DNA of 64,000 nucleotides from an uncultured Methanosarcinales archaeon (GTDB lineage Archaea; Nanobdellota; Nanobdellia; Woesearchaeales; GW2011-AR15). Positions 5,025 to 62,729 of this stretch are shown here, piece after piece (positions within the stretch are counted from its first letter, which is position 1; each line of letters opens with the position of its first letter). The stretch lies in the NCBI GenBank assembly GCA_964512765.1, contig CAZEKF010000001.1:66366-130365 (forward strand), read 5' to 3'. The translations under genes and the position numbers were made by a program. The notes under the pieces were generated by a model. The model had not been told where the DNA came from, searched no databases, and was given only the letters and a program-made list of their open reading frames with translations.

Positions 5025-5026
5025 AA

Positions 5027-5974: not shown

Positions 5975-5982
5975 TTCGAAAA

Positions 5983-7230: not shown

Positions 7231-7317
7231 CCGTGGTGAAAAACGACCCAAAAATAGTAAAACTTTTATAAAGTTCCTGTCTTCTATGATAGAAGTATAG
7301 ACAATTACAGATGAACA

Positions 7318-8661: not shown

Positions 8662-8664
8662 AGA

Positions 8665-11777: not shown

Positions 11778-12076
11778 GAAACTCCGCCAATTATTATTGT
11801 TGTTAAAACAAAAACAAATTTATTTAATGGAACATGTAAAAACACATCTAATATCACGTAAACAAAACCATAACTTAGCCCGATTAAATTTGTCAATAAA
11901 AATTTCTCAAGAAACCCAGTTTTAATTTTGATTACTAACGGTAAAAAAGGCATGTAAAAAAAGAATAAATAACTGAACATGAGCAAGAAACTTTCCCAAA
12001 GATTTTTCAAAGGAAGAGTAATAACAAAAGTAGTTATTGCTCCAACCAACATTAATTTGTTTAACTCAGTTTTCAT
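11756..12076 (-). CDS. Small membrane protein, function unknown
   Basis: 106 aa, 3 TM helices. Sits between GT-C-like genes with overlaps that suggest co-transcription. Confidence 0.25.
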   Translation of the reverse strand: MKTELNKLMLVGAITTFVITLPLKNLWESFLLMFSYLFFFYMPFLPLVIKIKTGFLEKFLLTNLIGLSYGFVYVILDVFLHVPLNKFVFVLTTIIIGGVSWFQLKK

Positions 12077-13712: not shown

Positions 13713-13730
13713 TTACTATTATAAATCTTC

Positions 13731-25134: not shown

Positions 25135-25137
25135 TTT

Positions 25138-42716: not shown

Positions 42717-44996
42717 TTAGCCGTAATAAACCGGCCTATTTTCTTTCATTTCTTTTCCGCGCGCAGCTTTAAATTGTTTAAGTAAGTCTTTATACGCTTC
42801 AGCAACGTCTTTTGTCACGCTCGGAGAAACTTTTTTCAAAGCATCTTCAAAATGTTTTTTATTGATCTTTTTAGCATCCATGTCTTTTCGTAATGCTAGC
42901 ATTGCAGATTCTCTGCATACTGCTTCAATGTCCGCGCCAACGTAACCATCTGTTTCTTTAGCAAGTTCTTTGATTTTCACATCTTTTGTTATTGGCATGC
43001 CTTTTATATGGATTTTAAAGATTTCTTCACGCGCTTTTTCAGTCGGTGCGGGAACTAAAACAATCCTGTCAAACCTACCAGGACGTAATAGTGCAGTGTC
43101 TACAATGTCTGGCCTGTTAGTTGCTGCTAATATCACAATATCGTCAAGTTCTATTAACCCGTCCATTTCTGTCAGTAGCTGGTTAACAACTCTTTCTGTC
43201 ACATGACTATCTGAACCAGCACCTCTTCTTGGAGCTAATGAATCAATTTCATCAAAGAAGATGATCGTTGGACTTGTTTGTCTAGCTTTCTCAAATATTT
43301 TTCTGACAGCTTTTTCAGATTCACCGACCCATTTACTTAACAGTTCAGGGCCTTTAACTAATATGAAATTAGATTTGCTTTCATTAGCAACAGCTTTCGC
43401 TAATAGTGTTTTACCAGAACCTGGAGGTCCGTATAACAAAATACCTTTTGGAGGTTTAATACCCATCCTTGTAAAGATTTGTGGATGTTTCAATGGCCAT
43501 TCAACAGCTTCTACTAATTCTTGCCTTACAGTATCAAGACCGCCAATATCGCCCCATTTTACATTAGGAACTTCAATCAAAACTTCTCGTAACGCACTCG
43601 GTCTCACGACTTTCAAAGCTTCAATAAAATCTTTTTTAGCTACGATTAATTTTTCAAGAACTTCCGTAGGAATAGGCTGGTCTTCTTCAAGTTTCATGTC
43701 AGGATATATACGTCTTAGTAATGTCATTGCAGCTTCTTTTGCTAATGCAGATAAGTCTGCACCAACAAAACCATGCGTTATCTCAGCAAATTGTTTTAAA
43801 CTAACACCTTTTGATAATGGCATGTTCCTTGTATGAATTTTTAAGATGTTCAATCTTCCTTCTACATCAGGAACGCCAATTTCAAGTTCTCGGTCAAATC
43901 TACCAGGCCGTCTTAACGCAGGGTCTAACTCATTTGGAATGTTTGTTGCACCAATCACAACAACTTTCCCTCTACTTTTCAGACCGTCCATTAAAGCAAG
44001 CATCTGTGCAACTACTCTTCTCTCAACTTCTCCTCTGCTTTCTTCTCTTTTTGAAGCAATTGCATCAATTTCATCAATAAAAATTATAGATGGCGCGTTT
44101 TTCTCAGCTTCTTCAAACTTTTTTCTTAGGTTTTCTTCACTTTGACCATAATATTTTGACATAATTTCTGGACCGTTTATTAAAATGAAATTAGCATGTG
44201 TTTCATTAGCAACAGCTTTTGCAAGTAAAGTTTTACCAGTACCTGGAGGACCGTGTAACAGAACACCTTTAGGTGGCTCTATACCAAGAGCTTCAAATAT
44301 CTCAGGATGTTTTAATGGTAATTCAACCATCTCTCTTATTTTGGTAATTTCTTCTTGTAATCCTCCAATATCTTCATACGTAACTTCCAGAACTTTTTCT
44401 TCGTCAACTTCAGTTGCTTCAGGGTTAAACTTAACTGCAGTTTGTTCAGTTATTAAAACAGCTTGTTTAGGGTCTGTACTAACAACAACAAATTTCAAAT
44501 CGCCTAATCCAAAACCCATTAAACTTTCGTCTAACATGTTAAAGAAATCATCACCAAATGTTGGGTTTGAAGACATTGCAGACCGTCTTCTTTTTGTGCC
44601 GCCTAATGATACAATATCACCTTTTGTTACAGCTCTTCCTAACAATCCTTGCTTGAAAATTACAGGATTTGCTCTAATAACAATACCTTTTCTTTGAGGT
44701 GCAATCATGACTTTCTTAGCTTCAATAACATTACCTTTTTTTATTGATACAATTTCGCCAATGCCTGCTTTTGCATTCCTTCTTATAAGACCGTCCATCC
44801 TAATAATGTTTAATCCAATATCACCAGGATATGCTCTGTCTGTGATTGCAACAGTTTTTCTTTCGCCCTTAATTTCAATTATATCGCCAGGCCTTATACC
44901 GAGCTCGTGCATAAAACTACTATCAATTCTTACAATACCTTTGTTAACATCATCCTGAATTGCTTCTGCAACTTTTAATTTTAATTCTTTGACCAT
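42717..44996 (-). CDS. cdc48: CDC48/VCP-like AAA+ ATPase (two AAA domains)
   Basis: N-terminal double-psi barrel. Two GPPGTGKT Walker A motifs, DEID Walker B motifs, second region of homology. 759 aa with no intein. Confidence 0.9.
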
Positions 44997-45091
44997 GATT
45001 AAATCACCTTTAACCTGAGATAAAACTTAAATGATAAATAAAGGTATCGGTGCATAAACTTAAATATAAAATGTTTTTTCCCTATTGAAGA

Positions 45092-46738
45092 ATGACGAAA
45101 AAGAAAAGATTAATGGATGATGCAGATCTTGATCAGTTTGTTAGAGACTGTATTCTTATATGGTATAATCGAACTGATGCACAGCCAATAACCGAAGAAC
45201 AGTCAAAAAAAATTTACAGAACAATTGGTGATATGGTTAACGCACACGAATTAGTCGCAGAGGTTTTTGAAGCTACGCAAGACATAATTCCTTTAATTGT
45301 TTATGATGAAGTACGCGTTTTAAGAAAAGAAATTGATCAGTATGATTCTCTTCTTTATGTTTTACATGGTAATTTTGATTATAGAGATGCACATCTAAGA
45401 CACGGAGATTCTTTGTTGGCTGTTTTAGCACAACACGTAGACTTGGCTACACCATACGAAACATGGAGACAACAACAAAACTTTTCTAAAGTTGATAATG
45501 TCACTGAACAACCTCAACAAGCACAAGCATTTGAAGTTGAACCAGGAGAAGAACATCACCACGTAGTACAACAATCTGTCCGAGATGAAATTCCGGTAAA
45601 TGCATCAGCAAGAGTTGAGGATATGCGTCTTGACGGTCATGCTTTACAAATACCAGGGACAGGAGTAACAGTTGCCACTCAGCTTGACCAACATCAAATT
45701 ATTGTTTCAGGAACAGCACCTAATAATTTTGTTATTCATCTACCAGGAGATCTTGGTGATAAATTACAAGACGGGTTACTTATAGTTGATACAATCGATA
45801 GGTTTTCACCTGAAATACGTCGTTTTGATTTTTTTTCAAGAGCTGAGCGAATTGCAGCTGGGCATGAAAAAGGGATAGCTACAAACTTATATCCGTCAGG
45901 ACAAGGAGCTAGTGCAACAATTACTTTTCAACAACCAGCAAACTATTTGTTAGTGCCTTTAGATGGAGATGGTGCATTAACTTGTGAACGAGGGAGATTC
46001 AAAGGATATATTGGGACATATAATTTGCGAAGATTTGAAAGAAATTTTAATATTTCTAATTTTCTTTTGGCAAACTTTAATTTTATTGTCAGTAAGTTAT
46101 CTGATCAGCCATTATTATTTGGACCTGTTCAAAAAGTGAATGTTAATGGTCAAGGATACGCAATAATTCAAGCATCTAAGGGAACTCAGACAGTTACCAT
46201 GCCTCCCCATGATGAACAAGATTTAGAATCGCCTGTTATTGCATACAAAAATGTTTTTTTCAAAGATAAAGGGTTGCCTTATAAAATTGGCATGGAAGTA
46301 ATTACTGCAGGAGGGTTAGCATCATTAGCTCTTATTTTTGGTGATAAAGCACCAGAAATAGGTAAAATGATTGGAGGATTTGCTGCAGGGTATTATGCTA
46401 CATCTGCAACGGTTGGCAAACGTACTTTTAAAAACACTTTAGTTAGTATTGTTACTGGTGTTGCTTGTGCAGCAACTACACAAATTAATTACGAACCAGT
46501 ACAAGAAGTTGTTCAAAATATTGTTGAACCTGTTTATGCGGGATTAGACGGATTATTTCTTGGGAGAATTCTATATGGAACAATATTTAATCCTATTAGG
46601 ATTAAAAACTGGGGAGAAAGAATATTTAGAATGTTATACTTGAGCAAAACCAATAATGCATTGACACAACCAGTAGCCTATACTAAAGAGAAAGTTGGTC
46701 ATGTTATAGAAGGAAGAATTGGTAGAGCTAGGGAATAA
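45092..46738 (+). CDS. Hypothetical protein with a C-terminal glycine-zipper membrane region (548 aa)
   Basis: About 400-aa soluble N-terminal region, then GxxxG-rich helices (VITAGGLASLALIFG, IGGFAAGYYATSA). Composition shift relative to the core genome. Confidence 0.3.
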   Translation: MTKKKRLMDDADLDQFVRDCILIWYNRTDAQPITEEQSKKIYRTIGDMVNAHELVAEVFEATQDIIPLIVYDEVRVLRKEIDQYDSLLYVLHGNFDYRDAHLRHGDSLLAVLAQHVDLATPYETWRQQQNFSKVDNVTEQPQQAQAFEVEPGEEHHHVVQQSVRDEIPVNASARVEDMRLDGHALQIPGTGVTVATQLDQHQIIVSGTAPNNFVIHLPGDLGDKLQDGLLIVDTIDRFSPEIRRFDFFSRAERIAAGHEKGIATNLYPSGQGASATITFQQPANYLLVPLDGDGALTCERGRFKGYIGTYNLRRFERNFNISNFLLANFNFIVSKLSDQPLLFGPVQKVNVNGQGYAIIQASKGTQTVTMPPHDEQDLESPVIAYKNVFFKDKGLPYKIGMEVITAGGLASLALIFGDKAPEIGKMIGGFAAGYYATSATVGKRTFKNTLVSIVTGVACAATTQINYEPVQEVVQNIVEPVYAGLDGLFLGRILYGTIFNPIRIKNWGERIFRMLYLSKTNNALTQPVAYTKEKVGHVIEGRIGRARE

Positions 46739-48110
46739 CCTCTTCGTAATAATCTGTTATTTTGAATGAATCAATAATTGTTGTGTTGTTTCCACTCACT
46801 TGATGAGCATTACCTATCAACGCGTTTTCATGCACGTCTATAGTTACAAAGTGATAAATACCGCATTTTGCATATTTTTGTAAAAAATTTATGCTTTGCT
46901 CATGATGACGTATTCCCCAACTACAGTCTTTTAATGGACCTCCTCCTCCGCCTGTTACAATAGTATGAATGAAGGTATTTGGAAAGATAAAAGTTTGTTC
47001 AGCACCGTTTTCGGGTTTAGTTTTATGCCCATCGTCAGGAACAGCATACCTTTCATATGAATGTAAATGACCTGAAAACACCATTGTTACATCATATTCT
47101 CTGAATAAATCTTCATAAAGATTACTTACTTTGGTAGTTTTACTCTCACCCATAGTAGCTGTATAAAACGGCATGTGCATGTATACAATAATGTTTTCTA
47201 TACCCTCCATTGATCGTGCTTGTTGAAGATGATTTTTTACCCAACCAACAGGTGTATTTCTCCAATATTCGTTTCCTTGTTCAAATGAAATAAAATATGT
47301 GTTTTTGTATCTAAAAGCATAGTTTGTTCCGTACTGAAGATCGCTTGGCGAACCAGATTCATGTGTGTTTGAAGGAGGGAACAACTTAAAATTATCTCCA
47401 AGTCCAGGGTTGCTTAGAAGAGAACTAAGAAATGACCTATATTGAAGAATTCCGTCTTGTGCTTGGTCATGGTTTCCGCTTGTTGGGAAGAAAGGTATAC
47501 CGTTTAGTTTATTTGTGAAACACTGGTTAAATCTACTGTAAGCACCGCCTGACCATCCCCAGTCCATTAAATCACCAGTATGAATTACTAAATTTGGGTT
47601 AGTCTGTGCTAACAAAGAGGGTAAACTTGATCTTTCAGCACCGCCGCATGAGTTTGTTGCATACTGTGTATCTCCAACAACGCCAAATCTAAACAAAAAT
47701 TCACCGTCTAATGATTCTGCGACTAATTTGTCCACAGGATTTCCTACCCACAACTCTAGTTTTTTTGAAGCTTCTGGTGTAGGTGTTGTCATTTGCGTAG
47801 ATGTCAATAAAATTTCTTGCGTTGGTGTCATAACATCTGTCGTTGGTGTATATACTTGAGTAGGATTTAATAGAACTTCTAAAGTAGGTGTTGTTGTAAT
47901 ATCAGATGAAACCACAGTGCCTAATGTGAAATCTGTTGAAAAAGCAATTGGGCTTGGAGTGACATAAACTTGTGCTTGGTTCTGTGATACAGATGTTGAA
48001 GAAGTTACTGTGCCATAGACCCAGCCAACAGTTACAGCACCGCCTAACAGTACAAGAGATCTTACTAAACCATTTTTCTTTTTCCTACGCCTACGTCTTC
48101 TTCTTGTCAT
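46728..48110 (-). CDS. Arg-tail signal-anchored surface protein with a calcineurin-like metallophosphatase domain; C-terminal ...EEVIP tag
   Basis: MTRRRRRRRKKK plus TM. T/P-rich stalk. Metallophosphatase motifs GDTQY, GDLMD, GNHD, MHMP, GHLHSYER. Ends DYYEEVIP. Confidence 0.7.
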   Translation of the reverse strand: MTRRRRRRRKKKNGLVRSLVLLGGAVTVGWVYGTVTSSTSVSQNQAQVYVTPSPIAFSTDFTLGTVVSSDITTTPTLEVLLNPTQVYTPTTDVMTPTQEILLTSTQMTTPTPEASKKLELWVGNPVDKLVAESLDGEFLFRFGVVGDTQYATNSCGGAERSSLPSLLAQTNPNLVIHTGDLMDWGWSGGAYSRFNQCFTNKLNGIPFFPTSGNHDQAQDGILQYRSFLSSLLSNPGLGDNFKLFPPSNTHESGSPSDLQYGTNYAFRYKNTYFISFEQGNEYWRNTPVGWVKNHLQQARSMEGIENIIVYMHMPFYTATMGESKTTKVSNLYEDLFREYDVTMVFSGHLHSYERYAVPDDGHKTKPENGAEQTFIFPNTFIHTIVTGGGGGPLKDCSWGIRHHEQSINFLQKYAKCGIYHFVTIDVHENALIGNAHQVSGNNTTIIDSFKITDYYEEVIP

Positions 48111-48116
48111 TTTTAT

Positions 48117-49469
48117 TTAAGGTATAGCTTCATCAGGATCATACTCTTCCACATTTGAAGCAACATGAACATCAGATTGTAACCTTGCAACCCAGATTTC
48201 GCTGTTTGATTTTTTCAAAGAATAACTGTGCTGCTGGTCTATCTTACCATATAGTAACCATAGTTCTTGGTTCATTCTATATATTTGATTTGCAGAATAA
48301 TGTTGGAAATTACCTTCTCCATTAAGAACCCACTTACCTGTTCTGTTCCAATTAATACCGTCACTGCTATACGTCCATTCTAAATGAACATTACCTTCAG
48401 CATGAACACGATCAACGCCTTCTCTAATGTTACGTAATTCTGGTTCATAAATCCAAAGAACACCTAAATATCCATTCTGAACTTGTGTAACTGCCATACC
48501 ATAGAAATGCGTGTCTTTTCCTTCTTTATCAATCTCACTTTGGTTTGGCACAAGCACTAGCTGTGGTTCAGACCAATTAATAAAATCATCAGATACAACT
48601 CTAGCAACAGTTCTTATTCTTACACCTTCAATATTTTCTTGTCTTTTAACATATCCAACATATTTATTTAACCTGAAATCATAGAAAAAGTTAGCAACAT
48701 CGCTCCAATTTGTATATGGGCCACCTATTTGATTAAAATCAATACCATTTGTAGATTCATATGCCATAAATCCGTTGTCTCGTTTATATACCATTAATTT
48801 CATGGTCTTTGTACCATCATAAACAACAGACGTCATGTTAGAATTTTCAAATAAAATCCGTTCGTTACTCCACTCATTACCATTACCACTTTCTACAACT
48901 CTAATGCTTGACCCAGAACCCGATGCTTTATCCCAATGAGTGAAATAAAGAAAATAGTTGTCACGATTTTCTCCTTTTGGTAAAATTCCACCATACACAT
49001 ACTCGATACCTTCAAACCTGTTTCCTTCTGTAAAAAGTATAGAATTATCTATAACTCTAACACTGTTAATCCAAGAAGCCAAATCAAACTCAAGATTACA
49101 TAAATATTCAGGAGGGCATAAAGATGCTTCTATTGTATTTTCAAGTGTAGGTGTTAAGGTTACAATTGGTGTTGAAGTTAACAACACTTTTGGTGAAGGA
49201 GTAAGTATAACCGGTTGAGTAGGATCAGACACAATAGTACCATCTGCAAAAGGTTCAGAAAAAGTAGGAATTGTCTGGTTGTTGTCAGAATGTTCTTTTG
49301 GATTATAAGGTAAGATAGCAGCTATTTGGTCAAATATTGGTTCGTTAAAATCAATCTGGCTTATTACATAACCTGTGTATAAAGAAGCTCCTCCTATTAA
49401 AGCAACTGTTCCAATAGTTTTAAGGAAATTTCCTTTTCTTTTCCTTCTTCTACGTCTTCGTCTTGCCAT
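48117..49469 (-). CDS. Arg-tail signal-anchored surface protein with a beta-propeller glycoside-hydrolase-like domain; C-terminal ...DEAIP tag
   Basis: MARRRRRRRKRK plus TM. T/P stalk. W/Y/G-rich repeated blocks typical of GH32/43/130-type propellers (the fold assignment is tentative). Ends EEYDPDEAIP. Confidence 0.4.
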   Translation of the reverse strand: MARRRRRRRKRKGNFLKTIGTVALIGGASLYTGYVISQIDFNEPIFDQIAAILPYNPKEHSDNNQTIPTFSEPFADGTIVSDPTQPVILTPSPKVLLTSTPIVTLTPTLENTIEASLCPPEYLCNLEFDLASWINSVRVIDNSILFTEGNRFEGIEYVYGGILPKGENRDNYFLYFTHWDKASGSGSSIRVVESGNGNEWSNERILFENSNMTSVVYDGTKTMKLMVYKRDNGFMAYESTNGIDFNQIGGPYTNWSDVANFFYDFRLNKYVGYVKRQENIEGVRIRTVARVVSDDFINWSEPQLVLVPNQSEIDKEGKDTHFYGMAVTQVQNGYLGVLWIYEPELRNIREGVDRVHAEGNVHLEWTYSSDGINWNRTGKWVLNGEGNFQHYSANQIYRMNQELWLLYGKIDQQHSYSLKKSNSEIWVARLQSDVHVASNVEEYDPDEAIP

Positions 49470-49475
49470 TTTTAT

Positions 49476-51134
49476 TTAAGGTATTATTTCTTCATAAAAT
49501 TCATTTCCTTCGAAAATTCTATCTCGAACAACATAATATGCTGCACTACACTCAACAGGTGAGTCTGTAATGCCTTCACCAACACAACCATATTCAGGTG
49601 TTTTAAATGGAGATTTTACAGCACCTGTTATAGAAGTAGAGAGCATAAAATCCTTAACAGCATTTGCAACAGCTTCATAACACCTAAAACTGTCAAAAGG
49701 GAACCCTTCCACAGCTTGGCAACTCATTAAATTGTTTGTTAACCAAGCAAGTTGGTCAAGACTTGTGTCATAATTAAGTGGTTCCTGAAAATTTAATACA
49801 TTTATCATATATCTAACATGCCACATATGACCTAACTCATGTGCAAAAACTTTTGTGAATATTTCTTGAGACACTGTATCTCTGTTTTTCATTATAATTT
49901 CATTATAGGAAACAACACCAGAGTCTGTTGTATTTTGAAAGCTTGTAACACCAGTGTCTGAACACGTCACAATTAACGGATCATTAAATAATACATAAGG
50001 TCCAACTCTTGTAACGAGTTCTTCTGCCCAAACAGGAATTTCTTGTCTACAGTTGTTAAAAGATACTAAACCAAATTCATATGTAGGGGCTTGTGCAACA
50101 ACTACAGTCGGAGTAGGTACAAGAGGTGTGTTAGTCAAAGTAGGGTTGAGAACACCAGTTGGCGTAGCTATCGCAACTTGACCACTACCTTGGTCAGGTT
50201 GAGAAATATCTACTTCAACAAACACACCTTTGTAATCAGGATATAAACTGCTAAGGTTTTCTAAACTAGTAGATTGTACACCACCTGCTGCAGTTGAATG
50301 AATAACAGTAACACCGTTATTAGTTGGGATCGCTATTCCAACATGCGAATATTCTCTTATGCCACCTTTATCATGGTTAAGTGTCCATAGATACATTTTA
50401 CCAATTTCCATATGATTACCAATATCATCCCATTTATCAGGGTCATAACCTTGGAACTCAGTAAATCCGTCTATTGGTTTAAATATCTGAGAATTTGGAT
50501 CAATAATGTATGCAATGTTAAGTGTCTGGTCCCAACCATATGCTTGCCTTAAAACTTCGTCATCTGCAGGTCGGTCTGTTCTTTGTTGAAATGCGTCGTC
50601 AAGTTTGATATTAACTCTACTAATTGCTCTGGCAGCTTGTAACTGATACCCTGCACAGTTGAATCCAATAACATTATCAATTGTTGGTGCACCACCTGTC
50701 CAATAAACAAACGAGCCATTATCATCAATAAAACCAAAGTTCTTGTAAGGCACGCCAATGTACTGACTTGCGTCATTTAAAGCCATTTGTGCAATTTCGT
50801 CAACACTTTTACTCGTCTGTGTAAAAAATAACGTTGGAGTTGGAGTTAACATTAAAGCATCAGGCGTAGGAGTTAATGCTACTGGTTGAGTAGGTCCAGG
50901 GATAAGTGTACCATTCATGAAACTTTCAGGAAAAATAGGAATTGCTTGATTATCATCAGATTGTTCTTTTGGGTTGTAAGGTAAGATAGCAGCTATTTGG
51001 TCGAATATTGGCTTGTCAAAATCTATCTGACTGATTAGATAACCACTGTATAAAGCTCCACCTATTAGAACCAAGTTTACACCAGTCCTAAGACAACCGC
51101 CTCCTCTCCTTCTTCTACGTCTTCGTCTTGCCAT
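49476..51134 (-). CDS. Arg-tail signal-anchored surface protein with NlpC/P60-like cysteine peptidase and HEXXH zinc-metallopeptidase domains; C-terminal ...EEIIP tag
   Basis: MARRRRRRRRGGG plus TM. NCAGY (Cys) and HVGIAIP...IHSTAAGG (His) of NlpC/P60. AHELGHMWH zincin motif. Ends NEFYEEIIP. Confidence 0.6.
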   Translation of the reverse strand: MARRRRRRRRGGGCLRTGVNLVLIGGALYSGYLISQIDFDKPIFDQIAAILPYNPKEQSDDNQAIPIFPESFMNGTLIPGPTQPVALTPTPDALMLTPTPTLFFTQTSKSVDEIAQMALNDASQYIGVPYKNFGFIDDNGSFVYWTGGAPTIDNVIGFNCAGYQLQAARAISRVNIKLDDAFQQRTDRPADDEVLRQAYGWDQTLNIAYIIDPNSQIFKPIDGFTEFQGYDPDKWDDIGNHMEIGKMYLWTLNHDKGGIREYSHVGIAIPTNNGVTVIHSTAAGGVQSTSLENLSSLYPDYKGVFVEVDISQPDQGSGQVAIATPTGVLNPTLTNTPLVPTPTVVVAQAPTYEFGLVSFNNCRQEIPVWAEELVTRVGPYVLFNDPLIVTCSDTGVTSFQNTTDSGVVSYNEIIMKNRDTVSQEIFTKVFAHELGHMWHVRYMINVLNFQEPLNYDTSLDQLAWLTNNLMSCQAVEGFPFDSFRCYEAVANAVKDFMLSTSITGAVKSPFKTPEYGCVGEGITDSPVECSAAYYVVRDRIFEGNEFYEEIIP

Positions 51135-51140
51135 TTTTAT

Positions 51141-52694
51141 TTAAGGTATTAATTCATCTGGTCCGTCATAATGAACTGTTGCAAAATTTACAACTGACCG
51201 ACCACTCCAAGTATATTCGTACAGCCTACCATTAAAATAAATCTGTTGCGATCCTCCAGCGTCCATGTTAATTGCAGAATGTGCACCAATGTTGTCCATT
51301 ATTTCTGCAGCATTGCACAAAGTCATTGGTTGAGTTATCATAACAAATAAGGTATTATCATTCACGCCAATCACTGTTCTTCCTCTTGAACCCCATTTAG
51401 GAGAATGACAATCTTGTTTAATGTCAGGATAAAAATCACCGCCGTAGTTGCTTCTATTAAACAAAGTATTGTTACCAGAAACAGCGTATAATATACCGTC
51501 GAAGTTACTGTTAATGTGCCTAATTGTTACTCTACCATTTTCATAAACTACTAATGAAGGCTCTCTAGGGTTTCCAGCATGGACATGATTACGATGTACA
51601 TACGGACCTTTAGGAACAGATGAACCAGAGTCCCATTGATCAGCATTAACAGTAAAAATTACATTATGGCTGTTAGCATATCCTTGCGCAGTATTTAACC
51701 CACCAGGTGCAGAAGATCCAACATTAATGTAAGGACTACACAAATCAAATTTAAACAAAGTATAATTGCCATTATTTTTAATTATTATAGGCTCATCCCT
51801 TGGTTTACAGTTATTTGGTCCTTGTGATTCTTCTGTTGGTCTAGGAGTATGTGTCAATGTAGGGACAGGAGTTGGTGTACTAATTAGATGTTTAATATCT
51901 ATATTACCTAAATCAGGTGAATAACTTTTAACTGCATCTTTTAGATGTTGGTAAGGATAACTGTTATTTGCAAAGCGCAACATTTCTTTTTCAGCTAGAT
52001 CGTAACTGTAGTTTTCGAACTCCACCCTATATATACCAACAATCATACCTGCTCTATGCGCACCATGCTGGCAATGAACATATACCGGTTGCATAGCAGG
52101 ATCTTTAATAATTGTCATAATCTCTAGAATATTTTTGTTAAAATCATGATGTGTAGGAGATTCTGCATTCATTGGATATTTATCAATGTAAATCATGCCT
52201 CTTTGTTCAACTAATGATCGTTCATTAGGCATTCCTTGAGACAAATCTATAACTGTTTTAAATCCTTGAGCTTGTAAATAATCAAAAGCAGCAGCAGAGT
52301 CTGGTTGAGCACCTGCAGCTAACACACCAGGATCAATCCATCTTAAATGAGTTACTGGTGAACCTTCAACTAAAGGAGGAATTTCTGCTTTAACAACAAT
52401 GTCAAGCGTAGTAGTTGGTTGAGGTGTAGGTGTATGGGTTGGCATCAATGTGGGCAGAGGAGTGTGAGTTAATGTTGCTAAAGTTTCTGGTGTTATGTAT
52501 GGGTCTGTTGGTGCGTACAGTACTGTTGCAGTAGTATCTAAGATTTGCTGAGCAGACATGTTATTAACATGAGCAGATGCATGGTCCCTTGTTTTAAAAT
52601 AAACAAATGACGCCGCTGTACCAAGAATAAATAATCCAAGAGGTATAACACAACTATTTCTACGATTCTTTCTTCTACGTCTCCTACGTGCCAT
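51141..52694 (-). CDS. Arg-tail signal-anchored surface protein with a CX5R (PTP/DSP-type) phosphatase domain and a phosphodiester-glycosidase (NAGPA-like) domain; C-terminal ...DELIP tag
   Basis: MARRRRRRKNRRN plus TM. VHCQHGAHRAG is an HCxxGxxR P-loop. C-terminal AINMDAGGSQQ resembles the NAGPA/DUF2233 motif. Ends YDGPDELIP. Confidence 0.6.
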   Translation of the reverse strand: MARRRRRRKNRRNSCVIPLGLFILGTAASFVYFKTRDHASAHVNNMSAQQILDTTATVLYAPTDPYITPETLATLTHTPLPTLMPTHTPTPQPTTTLDIVVKAEIPPLVEGSPVTHLRWIDPGVLAAGAQPDSAAAFDYLQAQGFKTVIDLSQGMPNERSLVEQRGMIYIDKYPMNAESPTHHDFNKNILEIMTIIKDPAMQPVYVHCQHGAHRAGMIVGIYRVEFENYSYDLAEKEMLRFANNSYPYQHLKDAVKSYSPDLGNIDIKHLISTPTPVPTLTHTPRPTEESQGPNNCKPRDEPIIIKNNGNYTLFKFDLCSPYINVGSSAPGGLNTAQGYANSHNVIFTVNADQWDSGSSVPKGPYVHRNHVHAGNPREPSLVVYENGRVTIRHINSNFDGILYAVSGNNTLFNRSNYGGDFYPDIKQDCHSPKWGSRGRTVIGVNDNTLFVMITQPMTLCNAAEIMDNIGAHSAINMDAGGSQQIYFNGRLYEYTWSGRSVVNFATVHYDGPDELIP

Positions 52695-52740
52695 GATGTT
52701 CTCATCGACCAGTAGTAAATAGTTATATTTAAAGATAGTG
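52650..52740 (-). repeat. Copy 1 of an approximately 90-bp duplicated segment covering the leaderless promoter (TATA-like TTTAAATATAACT) and the first approximately 14 codons of the Arg-tail gene
   Basis: A 45-mer CATGATGTTCTCATCGACCAGTAGTAAATAGTTATATTTAAAGAT at 52692..52736 is identical to 54313..54357. The flanks are near-identical. Confidence 0.7.
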
Positions 52741-52785
52741 GGTTTTCAATATGATTTTACTGTATAATTGAAGAAGAATTAGGTG

Positions 52786-54315
52786 CTATGGAATAGGTTC
52801 ATCATAATTATATTCATAAGCGGTTCTAAATGAGCTTGCAATATCTATACTGTTTCCAGAAATTAAAACTAATTTTCCACTATTTGACCCATTCATGGTT
52901 GGTATTGTTAAATTAACATTACCTTCTTCATTTGCTTGAATAACATCACCAGTAAAAACATTTGTTAATATTTCATAAGCTGGTAGTCCATTGAGCGTAT
53001 AATTTCTGGATTCTTGTGTTAAATTGACTAGGTAATACATTTGGGAGTCATTAGGCCCTTGCCTGACCATGTATGCAATACCATTTTGGTTTCCATATTC
53101 TGGATTTGATCCAGTTAACCAAGGCATTAACGCATGAAGTTCATGACCAATCTCACTAATAGTATTCCATAAAGATTCGTATAAACATGGTTTATTATAT
53201 TCACATTCTGGCCAATCCCATAAGGCAATACCATTAGCACCGCCAACAATTGCTTCGTCAATTCGTTGCCTAAGCATACCTCTTGATTGATTATAATTAA
53301 AATGTGCTGGTAAAACAACAAATGTAGAGTTTGAAATACCAGATTCTTTTTTACTTGATAACTGTCTTACTGAATTAAATGTTTTTCCAGTTCCTGAATA
53401 GTTATGATAAAAGTCAGCACCCCATATATCACCTAAGAGAGTATTAAATAATTGATCAGAAGAATAACCAAAATTAGGTTGATCCATTCTGTGATGTAAT
53501 ATTAATGTGTCGTGAACTGCATTGTTATGAATTTTTTTGTGGAGCCTTGTAACTTTTTCAGATATTAAGTTCCAATTTTTAATTAAATTAGGTTCATCTT
53601 TTCCATAGAACCATAACATTGAAGGATGATTATCTACAAAATTAATGAATTCAATTAGTTCTTCAGGTTTTTCGTCATATGTGTCAAATCGAGGAATCAT
53701 CATCATGCCAAATTCTCTGGCATGTTCAAAAATTTTGGGACCATATGGCTGCATAACAATTGTGTTAATACATGCATTAGACACTCTTTGCCACACATTC
53801 ATATTATGATTTATTTCAGCATCAGGCCCAAAGTCAGGATTATCAAATGCACCAGGAGGCCTAGGTAAATAATATATTCCAAATGGAAAAAAACCTGTTC
53901 CTTGTTGAGGGAGACCGTCACCAGTAATAATTATTGAACCTTGATTTTCATAATTTATTTGATTAGCACCATTTGCATACCAGGAAGGAACACATATAGT
54001 ATTATGTTGAACTAAATCTTGGAGATTTTGGACTTGAAGGGTGGGCGTTAGGGTAGGTAATGGTGTTGGTGTTGAAGTAGGTAATGGAGTATGAGTTAAA
54101 GTTGGTAATGTTTCAGAAGTCACAATTGTTTGAGTAGGTACAAAAAAAGCTTGTTGTGCAGGAGTCGCAACACTATTTTGTTGAACAGATGCTGCAATAT
54201 TTGGTATTACTTCTTCAAACATAAAATATGACACAGTAGTACCTAAAATAAATAATCCAAGAGGCACAACACAACTATTTCTACGTTTACTTCTTCTACG
54301 TCTCCTACGTGCCAT
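52786..54315 (-). CDS. Arg-tail signal-anchored surface protein with a TIM-barrel glycoside-hydrolase-like domain (tentative); C-terminal ...DEPIP tag
   Basis: MARRRRRRSKRRN plus TM. T/P stalk. WFYGKDEPN resembles the GH clan-A NEP acid/base strand. Ends YNYDEPIP. Confidence 0.35.
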   Translation of the reverse strand: MARRRRRRSKRRNSCVVPLGLFILGTTVSYFMFEEVIPNIAASVQQNSVATPAQQAFFVPTQTIVTSETLPTLTHTPLPTSTPTPLPTLTPTLQVQNLQDLVQHNTICVPSWYANGANQINYENQGSIIITGDGLPQQGTGFFPFGIYYLPRPPGAFDNPDFGPDAEINHNMNVWQRVSNACINTIVMQPYGPKIFEHAREFGMMMIPRFDTYDEKPEELIEFINFVDNHPSMLWFYGKDEPNLIKNWNLISEKVTRLHKKIHNNAVHDTLILHHRMDQPNFGYSSDQLFNTLLGDIWGADFYHNYSGTGKTFNSVRQLSSKKESGISNSTFVVLPAHFNYNQSRGMLRQRIDEAIVGGANGIALWDWPECEYNKPCLYESLWNTISEIGHELHALMPWLTGSNPEYGNQNGIAYMVRQGPNDSQMYYLVNLTQESRNYTLNGLPAYEILTNVFTGDVIQANEEGNVNLTIPTMNGSNSGKLVLISGNSIDIASSFRTAYEYNYDEPIP

Positions 54316-54362
54316 GATGTTCTCATCGACCAGTAGTAAATAGTTATATTTAAAGATGGTGT
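54272..54362 (-). repeat. Copy 2 of the approximately 90-bp duplicated promoter / 5'-CDS segment
   Basis: See copy 1. About 4 mismatches over about 90 bp. Confidence 0.7.
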
Positions 54363-54441
54363 TTTTTATGAAAATTAACTCTTAATTAGTATCAAATAAT
54401 TTTAAATATAACGTGTCATTACTTTTTAGTAAGAATTTATC

Positions 54442-55818
54442 ATGGTAAGATTGAACATTAAAAAAAAGACTAGAAAGCGCTCAAAAAAAAGAAGCTCAAG
54501 AAAGACTTTAAGAAGACGACCTAGTTCAGGTAATTCTCTTCAAAATAAATTGTTAAATTTTATACCTTCAGAGGCACCTGCTCAACGTCCAGGACTTGAA
54601 TTTAAAGATATTGTGGGAGATCTTTTTCGAAGGGGACCATGGTACTTATTTACACCATTTGCTTTGGAATCCGGAGATGCAACTGTTGATATTAATCCTT
54701 CTAGTCCAAGTCACGGGCAAATCATTGGTGATGTTAGTCTTAATCCAGTGAATGATTATGCAATAAATCATGTTACTTTTGAAATTGGGAAATCTATGTT
54801 AAGAGGCATTGCAGCTTCAAAAGAAAATTCAATAGTAGATACAATAATGCATGTAAGTGTTTTAGGATTATCCGGTTATCAATTTTATAATGGTTTTAGG
54901 AGATTAGGACATTTTCTATGGACAAATCCTATTACAGGTATACCCATTAGATCCTTAATAGGAAATTATGCACCAGATTTAGCAATGGCAATTGACATGG
55001 AATACTTGGACTTAAATTCACAACCAGAACAGTACACACCAATGGGTTCATTATTTGTAGGTATTAGCAACATCACTAGAGGATTTGAAGATGGAATTCA
55101 AGCACTGGGACAATTATATTTTGATGTTCTAAGAATGATGGGAAAGGTTGCGGAGTCAGAACCTAAAAGATCTCTTAAAGATATTCTAAAAGATTTAATT
55201 CCAAATATGCCTAGAGAAGCACCTGCTCAACGTCCAGGATTAGAATTTAAAGATATTTTTGCAGACTTATTCAGAAGAGGACCATGGTACTTACTTACAC
55301 CGTTTGCATTAGAGTCAGGAGATGCAACTGTTGATATTAACCCTTCCAGTCCAAGCCATGGACAAATCATTGGAGATTTAAGCCTTAATCCAATAAATGA
55401 TTATGCAGTTAGCCATGTCTCATTTGAAATTGGAAAATATGTATTAAGGGGCATTGCAGCAGCTGAGAAACGTCCTAAAGTAGATTTGTTAATGCACGGA
55501 CTTGTTGGTGCATTATCTGGTTGGCAAATTGCATATGGTTTAAAAAGATTTGGACATTTTCTATGGACAAACCCATTTACAGGCATACCTCTTAGATCTT
55601 TTATAGGTAGTAATGCACCAGATTTAGCGATGGCAATTGACATGGAATATTTAGATTTAAGTTTACAACCTGAACAGTATACGCCTATTAGTTCATATTT
55701 TGTAGGAATTAGTAATATCACCAGAGGAATTGAAGATGGAATTCAAGCAGTAGGGCAATTATATTATGATACTCTTAGAATAATGGGACGAGTTGCAGAA
55801 CCTGATGATATGTATTAA
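54442..55818 (+). CDS. Basic-tail protein made of two tandem approximately 200-aa repeats of an unknown domain
   Basis: N-terminus KKKTRKRSKKRSSRKTLRRRP with no TM. Residues 44-258 and 259-458 are about 75-80% identical (EAPAQRPGLEFKDI...GDATVDINPSSPSHGQIIGD...). Confidence 0.4.
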   Translation: MVRLNIKKKTRKRSKKRSSRKTLRRRPSSGNSLQNKLLNFIPSEAPAQRPGLEFKDIVGDLFRRGPWYLFTPFALESGDATVDINPSSPSHGQIIGDVSLNPVNDYAINHVTFEIGKSMLRGIAASKENSIVDTIMHVSVLGLSGYQFYNGFRRLGHFLWTNPITGIPIRSLIGNYAPDLAMAIDMEYLDLNSQPEQYTPMGSLFVGISNITRGFEDGIQALGQLYFDVLRMMGKVAESEPKRSLKDILKDLIPNMPREAPAQRPGLEFKDIFADLFRRGPWYLLTPFALESGDATVDINPSSPSHGQIIGDLSLNPINDYAVSHVSFEIGKYVLRGIAAAEKRPKVDLLMHGLVGALSGWQIAYGLKRFGHFLWTNPFTGIPLRSFIGSNAPDLAMAIDMEYLDLSLQPEQYTPISSYFVGISNITRGIEDGIQAVGQLYYDTLRIMGRVAEPDDMY

Positions 55819-55829
55819 TTTAAAGAATT

Positions 55830-57314
55830 TTATCCAGTAATTTGATTTTGTTTGTTATGAGTTTGATTATGATCATATAACTCTTTTGTACTTAGACTAG
55901 TTGTTGCTGCAACTTGTTTAATTTGCATATGGTCATTGTTTGCCCATGAAGAAATTCTATTTACAGCTGCATGTATCTTTTCCATATCTCCTTTTGCGTA
56001 CATTCTAACACAAGCCAAACGGTAGTTAGGGGGAAGTTTTCTTAATTTTTTTTTTTTAATTTGTTTTACAGGATCTCTAAACAAACCAGTTTTCGGCATC
56101 CAGTCACCGTAAGCATATTCAGGTATTACTTCAAATACCTCTTCAGGATCAAATTCATCAATTCCTTTGAACATTCTTTCAGTCCATGTTGCTTCATCAG
56201 GCGGCATCCATGGTGCTATGGAACAGTTTCGAAACCTAGCAATTGAGTTGGCTCTAGGCTGTGGAGTGTACGGATATCCATACAATGGATAGTAAATTTG
56301 TACTTCTAATTCAAGACCACCAGACTTTTCTTTTTCTATTTCACTAACGTACCCAACTACTAAGTCACCGTCTATTTCAACAGGATTTAACTGGGAAGAA
56401 ACACCAGGAATGGGATCCCATCTTGGGTTTAGAGCTCTTCCCAAGAATAAATGATCAGCATATCTATCTCTGTATCCTTCCATTTGTGAAAGATGTCTTG
56501 GTAAAGCAAAAAGACCACCTAGATCATAAACTCTTTTTGAAAATTCAACTTCTAATTCCATCTGCCCTGTATTTGTATCATGGTCAATATCAGCAAAAAC
56601 CAAAGTACCCAAACTTCTATCAAATATTTTAGGCAAAGCATTTAAAAATTGAACTCTAGCCATTTGTTCTGGATCAAGTTGTAATATTTTAATTGCATTC
56701 AAGATGTATTTAGTAACATAGGTCATGGGACCTTGCGAAAGAATGTTGACGTTTGATATGTATGGGCCGCTAGCAAGTGCATTAATAAGACGCTTACCAA
56801 AAGCATCTATAGTAATTTCAGTCTTTACATCTCGATCTTCCACAGGATATTGTCCAATTCTGTATCTGTTTTTTGATGCTTGAATTTCTTCGTAGGCAAA
56901 ATGATGTTTGAGATGGTGAACTGAAAAATCTGTAAACAGTGTTGCAAGCATATCTGGACTTCCTGCCATTTTAAAATCTAACTCTAACTTTGCATACGAT
57001 CTGTTTGGATAAAGTTCTAACCTTGTGTCACTACCTATGTATTCTTCTTGTTTAGGAACACGTTGAACTATACTTGCAAGCCCTTTTCTAATTTTCCTAT
57101 GTTTTGTTTTGTCTAAACTAAAAACTGGTTGCTCAGATTGCTGTGGCGGAGGAGTGTCCCATACCATGATTTGAGGTTCTGTTTGACCTAAATCTGTAGT
57201 TATTTCTCCTCCTTGGGTAGTTGTTATTCTAGAATCGTTGGATTTTGGACTAGTCATATCGCATGAGATTATTAAGTTAATATTTAAATATTTGCTTTTT
57301 CTAACTACTTTCAA
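55830..57314 (-). CDS. Hypothetical soluble protein (494 aa)
   Basis: Long ORF with no TM and no recognised motifs. Island-type composition. Confidence 0.3.
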   Translation of the reverse strand: MKVVRKSKYLNINLIISCDMTSPKSNDSRITTTQGGEITTDLGQTEPQIMVWDTPPPQQSEQPVFSLDKTKHRKIRKGLASIVQRVPKQEEYIGSDTRLELYPNRSYAKLELDFKMAGSPDMLATLFTDFSVHHLKHHFAYEEIQASKNRYRIGQYPVEDRDVKTEITIDAFGKRLINALASGPYISNVNILSQGPMTYVTKYILNAIKILQLDPEQMARVQFLNALPKIFDRSLGTLVFADIDHDTNTGQMELEVEFSKRVYDLGGLFALPRHLSQMEGYRDRYADHLFLGRALNPRWDPIPGVSSQLNPVEIDGDLVVGYVSEIEKEKSGGLELEVQIYYPLYGYPYTPQPRANSIARFRNCSIAPWMPPDEATWTERMFKGIDEFDPEEVFEVIPEYAYGDWMPKTGLFRDPVKQIKKKKLRKLPPNYRLACVRMYAKGDMEKIHAAVNRISSWANNDHMQIKQVAATTSLSTKELYDHNQTHNKQNQITG

Positions 57315-57369
57315 GTGATAAAATTAGTATTATTTATATATAACTTGTAATTACTCATCGATAATAAAA

Positions 57370-62620: not shown

Positions 62621-62729
62621 TTTGCTACTAAAAAGTAATAAATATTATATAAATCTTTCCTTTTTGTTATTATTTGATAGTGGTTAAAAAAGTTAAATTT
62701 AAATATAAATTTGTTTTACAGAGGGTAAA

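Follow-up and report, generated by a model that had tools for sequence, protein, structure and literature searches.

Two adjacent genes, g2 and g3, on a marine woesearchaeal (DPANN) chromosome begin with homologous, diverged leaders and continue into unrelated enzymes. It appears most probable, at roughly 60%, that the leader is a duplicate within a modular frame that runs through a whole inserted island, and that the frame carries a battery of surface hydrolases whose cargo has been swapped at the linkers and whose C-terminal tail serves as a tag. The analysis covers a stretch of 64,000 nucleotides (the window), and the features discussed are collected in Table 1.

The island is 20.7 kb long and is inserted between two conserved neighbours, orf135 and CDC48, whose synteny was found by tblastn in 31 of 80 related loci. 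Its GC content is 35.4% vs 30.8/31.1% in the flanks (+4.5%). An archaeal ribosomal operon, SecY, and AglB lie to its left, and CDC48 is 76% identical to proteins of Woesearchaeota/Nanoarchaeota MAGs. No close homologue of any island protein was found in the public data searched, and no family was found for five opposite-strand ORFans in Pfam, NCBIfam, PHROG, or PADLOC scans.

Table 1. Features of the island, in window positions.
Feature	Position	Strand	Content	Evidence
Island	44997..64000, on to about 65708 (window-equivalent)	.	lineage-specific, 13 genes, between CDC48 and orf135	tblastn synteny, GC
g1	46728..48110	-	460 aa: poly-Arg, helix, long T/P stalk, calcineurin-like metallophosphoesterase, tail EEVIP	Pfam PF00149, 64 bits
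g2	48117..49469	-	450 aa: leader, glycosidase-like domain (weak), tail DEAIP	weak GH32/GH130 matches
g3	49476..51134	-	552 aa: leader, Cys-His hydrolase, T/P linker, HELGH domain, tail EEIIP	homologues, AF2, Foldseek
g4	51141..52694	-	517 aa: leader, DSP-type phosphatase, T/P linker, NAGPA phosphodiester glycosidase, tail DELIP	Pfam, sequence
g5	52786..54315	-	509 aa: g4-subtype leader, YGKDEPN-motif domain, tail DEPIP	sequence, alignments
g2 repeat copy	49166..49493	-	g3 end and spacer (junction), then first ~304 nt of g2	blastn, local alignment
g3 repeat copy	50834..51158	-	junction with g4, first ~301 nt of g3	family D2
g2 juxtamembrane block	49284..49367	-	aa 35-62, VISQIDFNEPIFDQIAAILPYNPKEHSD	dN/dS vs g3, indicating purifying selection
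g3 counterpart of block	50955..51038	-	aa 33-60, LISQIDFDKPIFDQIAAILPYNPKEQSD	dN/dS vs g2
Junction repeat copy 1	48078..48134	-	g2 tail, TAA, ATAAAA, g1 start and poly-Arg codons	family D4, 81%
Junction repeat copy 2	49437..49493	-	g3 tail / g2 start	45 consecutive nt identical to copy 3
Junction repeat copy 3	51102..51158	-	g4 tail / g3 start	family D4
g4 promoter/5′ repeat	52593..52746	-	promoter (TTTAAATA box), 5′ leader, first 102 nt of CDS; duplicated at g5	family D3, 87%
g5 copy of promoter/5′ repeat	54214..54367	-		family D3
g6	57370..58398	+	342 aa: MPRRRRRKKG, hydrophobic helix, T/P/S-enriched N-terminal region, Peptidase_M23	Pfam
p751	58377..60632	+	751 aa: putative phage-lambda-type lysozyme domain (aa 234-344), ~400 aa without assigned function, tail QEVIP	
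p601 (5′ part)	62625..64000	+	601 aa, extends beyond window end: MASRAKRRRK, helix, ends AYNFDEVIP	

The g2 and g3 copies of the repeat align by blastn at 76.5% identity over 332 nt (E 1.5e-62), which takes in 24 nt 5′ of each ATG and the first ~304/301 nt of the two genes, with an ungapped core of 193 nt at 78%. At the protein level, the leaders are 60% identical over 102 aa (BLASTP, E 9e-33), and 63% identical over g2 aa 1-114. The g2 copy encodes poly-Arg, a hydrophobic helix, a conserved block, and the start of the T/P linker. The shared module exists, far beyond chance. An earlier sequence-only reading had called this anchor-and-stalk module near-identical; the module is real, but the nucleotide identity given above does not bear out that description, and the ~80% amino-acid identity claimed comes to 70.5% (55/78) over g2 residues 24-100. 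The g3 copy, whose boundary had been placed at 50867, ends near 50834.

An artefact of low complexity or composition in T/P- and Arg-rich coding sequence is extremely unlikely to explain the similarity. Both leaders do contain poly-Arg and T/P-rich stretches, and the 114-aa leader used alone as a query returned no match, not even itself, probably owing to bias filtering. However, identity peaks in the non-repetitive block ISQIDF..PIFDQIAAILPYNPKE, reaching 23/26 (88%) in DQIAAILPYNPKE (g2 aa 34-59), and the T/P-rich part is the least similar; a similarity confined to T/P codons, which the sequence-only reading had named as the outcome that would refute it, is not what is seen. With poly-Arg left out, the local alignment still scores 300 vs 30 +/- 5.6 (max 52) in 1000 shuffles, some 48 sd above the shuffle mean. 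The artefact was rejected on the block identity and the shuffle test.

With regard to divergence, dS and dN over the whole g2/g3 leader are 0.63 and 0.26, respectively, and dS values of about 0.6-0.8 indicate an old duplication. In the juxtamembrane block, dN is 0.06 and dS 0.81, and the resulting dN/dS of about 0.08 points to purifying selection on ISQIDF..PIFDQIAAILPYNPKE; dN then climbs to 0.36 and 0.54 through the linker. Ongoing gene conversion among the array members (concerted evolution), instead of an old selected duplication, might also keep the leaders similar, and this account is less probable but deserves attention. At the junction, 45 nt, including the first 9 codons, are identical between the g2 and g3 copies, whereas elsewhere in the repeat identity drops to ~73%; assuming independent sites, such a run has a probability of about 0.73^45, roughly 7e-7. 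In addition, the repeated promoter and first 34 codons of g4/g5 show a dS of 0.17 vs ~1.1 further downstream. However, past the g2/g3 junction dS is high (0.5-0.87) and dN is low in the core block only, a pattern of purifying selection and not of recent conversion. The identical junction may equally stem from what stop-start reinitiation and the tail and poly-Arg codons demand; the near-identical 45-57-nt junction could reflect either gene conversion or a need for stop-start translational coupling. Each junction is composed of tail codons, a stop, ATAAAA, ATG, and poly-Arg codons.

The homology of g2 and g3 fades within the Thr/Pro linker, with no alignment past aa ~113. Such a break inside a linker is a signature of domain shuffling or cargo replacement, and the evidence on fold and family differs for the two proteins, in agreement with the earlier view that the C-terminal domains are unrelated. 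Domain shuffling behind a leader is likewise supported, since the homology breaks in the Thr/Pro linker before unrelated enzymes, but the leader is not constant: g1, g2/g3, and g4/g5 represent three subtypes in the array, and even g2 and g3 have diverged to a dS of ~0.6. The g4/g5 pair repeats the g2/g3 pattern, a homologous leader followed by unrelated domains.

The five-gene array, which together with the inserted island and the shared C-terminal tail goes beyond what had been noticed before, comprises an operon in the order g4-g3-g2-g1 with g4 first and 6-nt spacers (g1/g2, g2/g3, g3/g4), and g5, which has its own promoter and is separated from g4 by a 91-nt promoter region. Each of g1-g5 is complete and starts with ATG, poly-Arg, and a helix. 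Seven island genes open with a poly-Arg or otherwise basic stretch (7-10 R/K in the first 15 residues) and one hydrophobic helix, followed in five of the seven by a clear Thr/Pro stalk; p751 is an eighth, with an uncharged hydrophobic N-terminus only. These proteins have a single hydrophobic segment, which is N-terminal. The g1-g5 stalks, like the linkers between the domains of g3 and g4, are enriched in T/P/S (0.4-0.67).

In the proposed leader, a 7-10-residue Arg/Lys tag, expected to remain cytoplasmic, would precede a 17-19-residue hydrophobic helix, a 28-residue juxtamembrane block apparently held by purifying selection, and the start of the Thr/Pro-rich linker. Most likely the helix is a Sec signal-anchor that stays uncleaved, and less likely a signal peptide that is cut off; signal peptidase might recognise the L-[IL]-G-G-A motif conserved in g1-g3, which would take away the "anchor". 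No island protein matched TAT_signal or contains the S/T-R-R-x-F-L-K consensus of a Tat signal, and g2 alone shows a loose "..KGNFLK". By eye, a class III (type IV pilin-like) site, [KR]-[GA]-hydrophobic, fits g6 (KKG/IVSPLL) and fits g1-g5 poorly.

The enzymes behind these leaders differ from gene to gene. In g2, the cargo may be a five-bladed beta-propeller glycosidase-like domain, as suggested by weak similarity to GH32 (PDB 7vco, E 0.01) and a partial 22-bit match to NCBIfam GH130 (8e-5) far below the cut-off; sequence searches gave no other homologue, and the single-sequence AF2 model (pLDDT 35) was unusable. In g3, an NlpC/P60-fold Cys-His hydrolase (aa ~115-310) is followed by a HELGH metallopeptidase-like domain (aa ~345-500), whose HExxH motif is conserved in the homologue P0007. 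The AF2 model of the first domain (pLDDT 86) resembles NlpC/P60 cell-wall hydrolases, with 4h4j, MepS 8xup, 7v6t, P60 3i86, RipA 2xiv, and CwlO 8wt3 as top Foldseek matches (probability 0.95-1.0), and Cys160 and His264 are invariant across 27 sequences. The predicted papain-like fold with conserved Cys and His thus places this domain in the NlpC/P60 superfamily. The Pfam scan gave no PF00877 match and only Peptidase_C92 at 14.9 bits vs a cut-off of 27; no Pfam model exists for this domain, which forms a family of its own. Among its remote homologues there are fusions to SLT, M23, LysM, NlpC/P60, VanW, and polysaccharide deacetylase domains. The first domain of g4 (aa ~116-245) is predicted to be a Cys-based protein/dual-specificity phosphatase, with Pfam matches to PTP-NADK, Y_phosphatase2, and PTP-SAK (42-44 bits vs a cut-off of 27) and the active-site loop VHCQHGAHRAG, in which HCQHGAHR represents C-x5-R. 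The cargo of g5 is possibly a clan GH-A TIM barrel.

On the right-hand side of the island, the Peptidase_M23 domain of g6 scores 31.9 bits (Pfam, cut-off 28.7) and shows an HVH (H-x-H) motif. Its N-terminal T/P/S enrichment is moderate (0.3-0.33) and weaker than in the g1-g5 stalks, and the protein ends in DQPIL, without the tail. The first 22 nt of p751 lie within g6, in the -1 frame; the putative lysozyme domain of p751 matches phrog_90 endolysin (1e-10) and PDB 1am7/3d3d (E 2e-5, lambda residues 25-129), the latter alignment beginning after the catalytic Glu19.

Seven island proteins end in the tail [YF]-x-x-[DE]-E-x-I-P, which has not been described before. The E-x-I-P ending occurs in 6 of ~46 window ORFs and in p601, all within the island, and in none of 1116 ORFs of the 80 related loci. 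Tail and stop codons vary from gene to gene, which argues for selection on the protein rather than on the DNA. The tail most probably serves for docking or sorting, as a tag that some partner reads. A more far-reaching and rather tentative proposal is that the poly-Arg N-terminus and the tail form a new lineage-specific sorting or docking system that assembles or delivers unrelated hydrolases, with its reader among the five ORFans. Possible destinations would be a scaffold, the S-layer, or a prey/host cell. Candidate readers are a two-repeat protein at 54442..55818 and a 668-aa protein with two internal EE-x-IP copies. A sortase- or archaeosortase-type signal is not seen, as the proteins stop at E-x-I-P without a second hydrophobic segment, and the ~81 kb surveyed revealed no sortase-like gene. 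As a candidate archaeal protein-targeting signal of a new kind, the tail is short and easy to test.

Domain shuffling behind a constant anchor and stalk had led the sequence-only reading to compare the locus with polymorphic toxins or effectors, in which a constant trafficking N-terminus is recombined with toxin cassettes so that the weapon differs from strain to strain, as in the Rhs/CDI/MafB type. Unrelated enzymes do have common termini in a tandem array here, the near-identical junctions could act as recombination sites, and the g4 phosphatase matches Tc-R-P (PF22785) at 27.1 bits vs a gathering threshold of 27, although four other PTP families match more strongly. Tc-R-P is the "polymorphic toxin DSP-PTPase" family. 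The comparison is nevertheless very unlikely to hold. The array has 6-nt spacers and no immunity genes, its other ORFs being embedded antisense only; every gene has its own ATG and leader, no truncated cassettes were found, and no orphan cassettes, which had been suggested as a search target, occur elsewhere in the ~81 kb surveyed. The leaders are split into diverged subtypes, and whole multi-domain enzymes vary, not merely a C-terminal tip. Pfam, NCBIfam, and PADLOC scans found no Rhs/YD, LXG, PT-TG, DUF4157, or other trafficking domain; DUF4157 is a signature of archaeal polymorphic toxins (Makarova et al. 2019, PMC6393860). Nine contigs, taken from different samples but all of one population, are 99.2-100% identical without cassette differences and differ by point changes or small indels only (clustered substitutions and two 1-nt indels in L002; one nonsense mutation and one 9-nt deletion in L003). 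Of the features expected of a polymorphic-toxin system, immunity genes, orphan cassettes, a known trafficking domain, and, within the one population sampled, strain polymorphism were not found.

The insertion between conserved neighbours, the raised GC, the lambda-type lysozyme with its PHROG endolysin match, the M23 peptidase, and the many ORFans would suit the remnant of an integrated virus or mobile element, with the enzymes as its lysis or entry proteins. This origin is improbable: integrase, capsid, terminase, and other PHROG matches are absent for nine other island proteins, neither flanking direct repeats nor a tRNA were found, and IMG/VR yielded no relatives. Murein hydrolases would be useless to an archaeal virus against an archaeal host, and export leaders with stalks are typical of cellular ectoenzymes. 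The enzymes might also act on the envelope of the archaeon itself or of an archaeal host (glycan/phosphate trimming, attachment) instead of on bacteria. The DPANN partners known so far are archaea, the window carries genes for AglB, numerous glycosyltransferases, and the UDP-GlcNAc pathway, suggesting a heavily glycosylated own surface, and the cargo of g1, g2, g4, and g5 is not peptidoglycan-specific. Such a role seems unlikely, however, in view of the NlpC/P60, M23, and lambda-type lysozyme families, whose characterised members cut murein, and of the g3 domain-1 family, which is fused almost solely to murein-directed domains. Surveys also take such Nanoarchaeota/Woesearchaeota genes as antibacterial (PMC12352652, PMC9723730): peptidoglycan hydrolases figure prominently among the Nanoarchaeota (Strock et al. 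2025, PMC12352652), and Woesearchaeota with murein transglycosylases were proposed as predators (Vigneron et al. 2022, PMC9723730).

The preferred reading, a hydrolase battery built on a duplicated frame, may be outlined as follows. The building plan would start with a basic N-terminus and a helix, go on in most cases to a T/P stalk, and, past a variable enzyme, usually close with an acidic tail. The leader-and-tail frame may have been tandemly duplicated and its cargo exchanged through recombination within the repetitive T/P linkers; alternatively, the leader may have been copied onto incoming genes. The hydrolases would be displayed on or released from the archaeal surface and, judging from their domains, aimed at bacterial envelopes. 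Three proteins carry putative bacterial peptidoglycan-hydrolase domains (NlpC/P60 fold, M23, and lambda-type lysozyme), while the NAGPA and DSP phosphatase, metallophosphoesterase, and GH-like domains could target phosphodiester-linked wall polymers or glycans. Since the producer lacks murein, it would require no immunity genes. DPANN archaea, abundant and uncultured, are believed to depend on other cells for their living, and little is known of how they engage them; the island is a concrete, testable candidate toolkit for an archaeon attacking or scavenging bacteria, and may illustrate how such a toolkit diversifies by cargo swaps at Thr/Pro linkers behind a duplicated leader.

Several known systems share parts of this plan. 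In the cellulosome, many different hydrolases carry a dockerin tag (~70 residues, Ca-binding), and PT linkers join the modules. Unrelated hydrolases with one short C-terminal tag, Pro/Thr-rich linkers, and module swapping recall that system, but the island tag has only ~8-10 residues, its proteins have their own N-terminal membrane segment, and no cohesin-like scaffold was identified. Type II ectoenzymes, such as Golgi glycosyltransferases and influenza neuraminidase, have a basic cytoplasmic tail, a signal-anchor, a stalk, and a catalytic head. The basic tail, single helix, Pro/Thr/Ser stalk, and enzyme of the island proteins correspond by analogy, not homology, with 7-10 consecutive Arg/Lys instead of the usual two or three, and in an archaeal host. 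A short conserved C-terminal motif on otherwise unrelated exported proteins also resembles C-terminal sorting signals. In PGF-CTERM/archaeosortase and LPXTG/sortase signals, however, the motif is followed by a hydrophobic helix and basic residues, and the T9SS CTD is a domain of ~80 aa, whereas the island proteins simply stop at E-x-I-P. Polymorphic toxin systems of the Zhang/Aravind type likewise combine a shared N-terminal export part with diverse enzymes and possible recombination boundaries, but the island leaders fall into subtypes and the cargo consists of whole multi-domain enzymes with a shared C-terminal tail. A parallel in setting is found in archaeal peptidoglycan hydrolases, exported M23, NlpC/P60-, and lytic-transglycosylase-type enzymes of murein-free producers, for which domain shuffling was noted as a hallmark (PMC12352652, PMC9723730). 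Unlike those cases, the island enzymes lack the usual LysM and PG_binding_1 cell-wall-binding domains and include a putative lambda-type lysozyme where GH23 had been described; a single inserted island holds a cluster of up to eight exported enzymes, which share a basic N-terminus and helix and, in seven of the proteins, the E-x-I-P tail.

The genes g2 and g3 lie in a minus-strand array of five consecutive genes (g1-g5, of which g4-g3-g2-g1 form an operon) and begin with a common leader, comprising a poly-Arg stretch, a hydrophobic helix, a juxtamembrane block and the start of a Thr/Pro (T/P) linker. By blastn, 49166..49493 and 50834..51158 of the window are 76.5% identical over 332 nt (E 1.5e-62), with an ungapped core of 193 nt (78%), and the repeat runs from 24 nt 5′ of each ATG to about 304/301 nt inside the genes. 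At the protein level, the leaders share 60% identity over 102 aa by BLASTP (E 9e-33), while global alignment gives 63% for aa 1-114, 70.5% for g2 residues 24-100 and 88% for a 26-residue core. Once the poly-Arg run is removed, the local alignment scores 300, as against a mean of 30 (sd 5.6, maximum 52) in 1000 shuffles. Neither global alignment nor BLASTP aligns the two proteins past residue ~113. On these values, the shared leader proposed by the sequence-only reading is real and is not confined to low-complexity T/P codons; the terms "near-identical" and "about 80%" amino acid identity were overstatements, and the repeat boundary in g3 is moved from 50867 to ~50834.

Nei-Gojobori estimates from a codon alignment of the two leaders gave dN 0.26 and dS 0.63 overall. 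The first nine codons are nucleotide-identical; the helix region has dN 0.36 and dS 0.50, the block VISQIDFNEPIFDQIAAILPYNPKEHSD has dN 0.06 and dS 0.81, and dN is 0.36 and 0.54 in the first and second T/P-rich parts, respectively. By these estimates, the repeat is an old duplication, in which a single segment is kept by protein-level selection and homology fades within the T/P linker.

The architecture extends to the whole array and, in part, to three plus-strand genes of the same island, a 20.7-kb block between CDC48 and a 135-aa gene (orf135). All five array genes start with M-[AT]-R7-8, followed by a single hydrophobic segment and a stretch with 40-67% Thr/Pro/Ser, and end in [DE]-E-x-I-P followed by a stop codon. 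The positions of these genes and of their C-terminal tails are listed below.

Members of the array and further island genes, with the position of the C-terminal tail (window coordinates unless stated otherwise)
Gene	Position	Strand	Length	Tail	Features
g1	46728..48110	-		46731-46745	
g2	48117..49469	-	450 aa	48120-48134	
g3	49476..51134	-	552 aa	49479-49493	
g4	51141..52694	-		51144-51158	
g5	52786..54315	-		52789-52803	
g6	57370..58398	+		none	MPRRRRRKKG, helix, M23 peptidase domain
p751	58377..60632	+		60615-60629	ends YYQEVIP; N-terminus hydrophobic, uncharged
p601	from ~62625, past window end	+		8089-8103 (metagenome contig L087)	MASRAKRRRK and helix; ends AYNFDEVIP; no T/P-rich stalk

A second repeat, common to g4 and g5 (154 nt, 87%), contains a TATA box of archaeal type (TTTAAATA) together with the 5′ leader and codons 1-34 (dS 0.17), and the stalks of both proteins carry a similar motif, ETL.TLTHTPLPT. 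An inverted repeat (ATATAACTATTT ... AAATAGTTGTGTT) surrounds the start codon of each (minus strand, 52640-52760 and 54260-54380); its predicted fold of -21 kcal/mol is no better than that of shuffles, and an RNA element is unlikely, since part of the repeat lies inside the TATA box. With g2 and g3, g1 has only the junction and an L-[IL]-G-G-A helix motif in common. In g6, the Thr/Pro/Ser content of the N-terminal part is only 0.3-0.33. The last 22 nt of this gene are also the start of p751, in the -1 frame (58377-58398), and the two would give the full family architecture if they made one protein, g6 supplying a leader without tail and p751 a tail without basic N-terminus. A programmed -1 frameshift fusing them was rejected: an in-frame TGA occurs two codons before the p751 ATG and there is no canonical slippery heptamer, so they are treated as two overlapping genes. 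Divergent from g5 is an ORFan (an ORF of no detectable family; 54442..55818, plus strand) with a very basic N-terminus. It consists of two tandem repeats of ~215 aa (54561-55154 and 55206-55799, 80% nucleotide identity), about as old as the g2/g3 pair of copies.

Genes g1 to g4 are joined by near-identical junctions. The sequence ATACCTTAAATAAAAATG occurs in exactly three copies, at g1/g2, g2/g3 and g3/g4 (0.09 matches expected by chance), the spacer is fixed at 6 nt, and 45 consecutive nucleotides are identical between the g2/g3 and g3/g4 junctions (family D4). This identity points to gene conversion or to a nucleotide-level constraint, such as stop-start reinitiation across the 6-nt spacer. 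No significant RNA structure was found at the junctions (z-scores -1.05 to +1.3). In metagenome/viral contigs, the degenerate pattern "E-x-I-P, stop, 6 nt, M-x-R5" gave three matches, all on contigs of 63-65% GC and away from genuine gene junctions.

The motif [DEQ]-E-x-I-P, with an aromatic residue before it, forms the C-terminus of seven island proteins that are otherwise unrelated. The pentapeptide occurs nine times in 5749 island residues and not once in 12679 residues outside the island. No remaining ORF of the window has a C-terminal [ILVM]-P, and C-terminal IP was found in 0 of 1116 ORFs of at least 150 aa across 80 related genomes. The Pro, Ile and Glu codons of the tails vary and all three stop codons are in use, which argues for conservation at the protein level. 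Internal copies are present near the N-terminus of a 668-aa ORFan (60614-62620, minus strand; QEEIP at aa 39 and EELIP at aa 64) and directly past the helix of g5 (EEVIP at aa 34). The tail probably serves as a docking or sorting tag; sortase and archaeosortase signals need a hydrophobic helix, which the island tail lacks.

The enzymatic cargo differs from gene to gene. In g1, Pfam detects a calcineurin-like metallophosphoesterase (64 bits), and g4 combines a Cys-based dual-specificity phosphatase (42-44 bits, HCQHGAHR loop) with a NAGPA phosphodiester glycosidase (54 bits) past a second T/P linker. Peptidase_M23 in g6 scores above the gathering score. Residues 234-344 of p751 match phage lambda lysozyme (1am7/3d3d, E 2e-5), and p751 also matches a PHROG endolysin family at 1e-10, lysozyme being the sole PHROGs match among ten island proteins. 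No Pfam model covers the first domain of g3. Among 1.84 billion representatives, a full HMMER search recovered ~50 remote homologues, many fused to SLT, M23, LysM, NlpC/P60, VanW or polysaccharide deacetylase domains, and an alignment of 27 sequences contains an invariant Cys and His. Its AlphaFold model (pLDDT 86) matches NlpC/P60 cell-wall hydrolases with a probability of 0.95-1.0, including MurNAc-L-Ala amidase, MepS, P60, RipA and CwlO. Four candidate homologues (P0003, P0018, P0020 and P0035) were discarded as false positives, being translated tandem repeats. The second domain contains HELGH and shares 36% identity with P0007, a 308-aa protein of another marine metagenome (L090, 648-1574). 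P0007 is the one homologue to combine the HExxH domain with a T/P stalk and a TM segment, and its 1.8-kb contig offers no useful context. It ends in ...GKEFPQIPSE, loosely resembling the g3 tail, and is the only hint of the architecture outside the island. The "dual-peptidase" label of g3 is thus well supported by its NlpC/P60-type and HELGH domains, and "GH-like" for g2 holds only weakly, on hints of a beta-propeller glycosidase (a GH32 match at E 0.01 and a partial one to GH130). Single-sequence AF2 modelling of g2 gave an unusable result (pLDDT 35), and PDB sequence searches with g5 and the g2 domain returned nothing convincing. The cargo of g5 and p601 is unassigned.

With regard to the setting, at least 23 metagenome contigs from marine samples encode g3 without a change, the longest of 167-262 kb. 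CDC48 (42717..44996) reaches 76% identity with Woesearchaeota/Nanoarchaeota MAGs, SecY, AglB and an archaeal ribosomal-protein operon lie left of the window, and housekeeping and glycosylation genes make up its remainder. A large surface-glycosylation set (1472-14429 and 21369-26481) includes AglB/STT3, several GT2 glycosyltransferases, an epimerase, EamA transporters and GlmS-, GlmU- and GlmM-like genes, and would fit surface proteins that are heavily glycosylated. A free-standing LAGLIDADG-like ORF of 337 aa (40392-41405, minus strand) sits between AP-endonuclease-family and EF-1-beta genes. The gene that flanks the right edge of the island, orf135, is directly upstream of CDC48 in 31 out of 80 loci of related Woesearchaeota, and none of the 13 island proteins had a tblastn match in the 80 loci; the block from 44997 to ~65708 (window-equivalent numbering, the part past the window end being L087 6913-8620) is therefore an insertion between two conserved genes. 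Its GC content is 35.4%, as against 30.8/31.1% in the flanks. Direct repeats of at least 9 nt are missing from its flanks, there is no tRNA or Rfam match, and no integrase or other mobility gene was found in the island. The five opposite-strand ORFans of the island (45092..46738, 54442..55818, 55830..57314, 60614..62620 and a 340-aa ORF) had no detectable family in Pfam, PHROGs, NCBIfam and PADLOC scans; PADLOC found no credible defence family, its sole match being SIR2 to orf548 (E 0.0043, 14.2 bits).

The g2/g3 leader is absent elsewhere in the protein collections searched. In the full HMMER search with g3, it was confined to g2 and g3 variants, and full-length g2 and p751 returned self-matches only. 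The 114-aa leader alone matched none of 5.8 billion proteins, itself included, probably owing to bias filters. No g3 relative was found among GTDB representative genomes, and no relative of p751 or the 668-aa ORFan in IMG/VR. The exact poly-Arg start pattern occurs four times in the window and not at all in the metagenome/viral contigs, a collection that evidently lacks the source population. Contigs of different samples match the window at 99.2-100% identity. In one strain contig (L003), a nonsense mutation at 48181 costs g2 its last 21 residues including the tail, and 9 nt are deleted in g1 (46872-46880). With such small changes only, there is no sign of cassette polymorphism.

Taken together, these comparisons show a diverged leader duplicate ahead of unrelated enzymes, with g4/g5 as a second such pair, in an inserted island with near-identical junctions, a tail common to seven proteins and murein-hydrolase-type domains. 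The N-terminus would act as a Sec signal-anchor that leaves the poly-Arg segment on the cytoplasmic side, its hydrophobic stretches (17-25 residues) being longer than typical signal-peptide cores. Cleavage after L-I-G-G-A is a possible alternative. The T/P segments would form extended stalks and linkers and also be sites of cargo exchange, and the array may have grown through tandem duplication and later replacement of the cargo. The gene products could form a surface battery directed at bacterial envelopes, which would require no immunity because the producer has no murein; this agrees with published surveys (PMC12352652, PMC9723730).

A polymorphic toxin array, of which the sequence-only reading was reminded, and a cellulosome enzyme set work somewhat similarly. 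However, the island lacks the immunity genes, orphan cassettes, trafficking domains and strain variation of the former and the dockerin and cohesin of the latter, and belongs to neither. It is filed under an already known kind, the modular exported hydrolases of DPANN archaea, from which the common tail and the extreme poly-Arg N-terminus set it apart.
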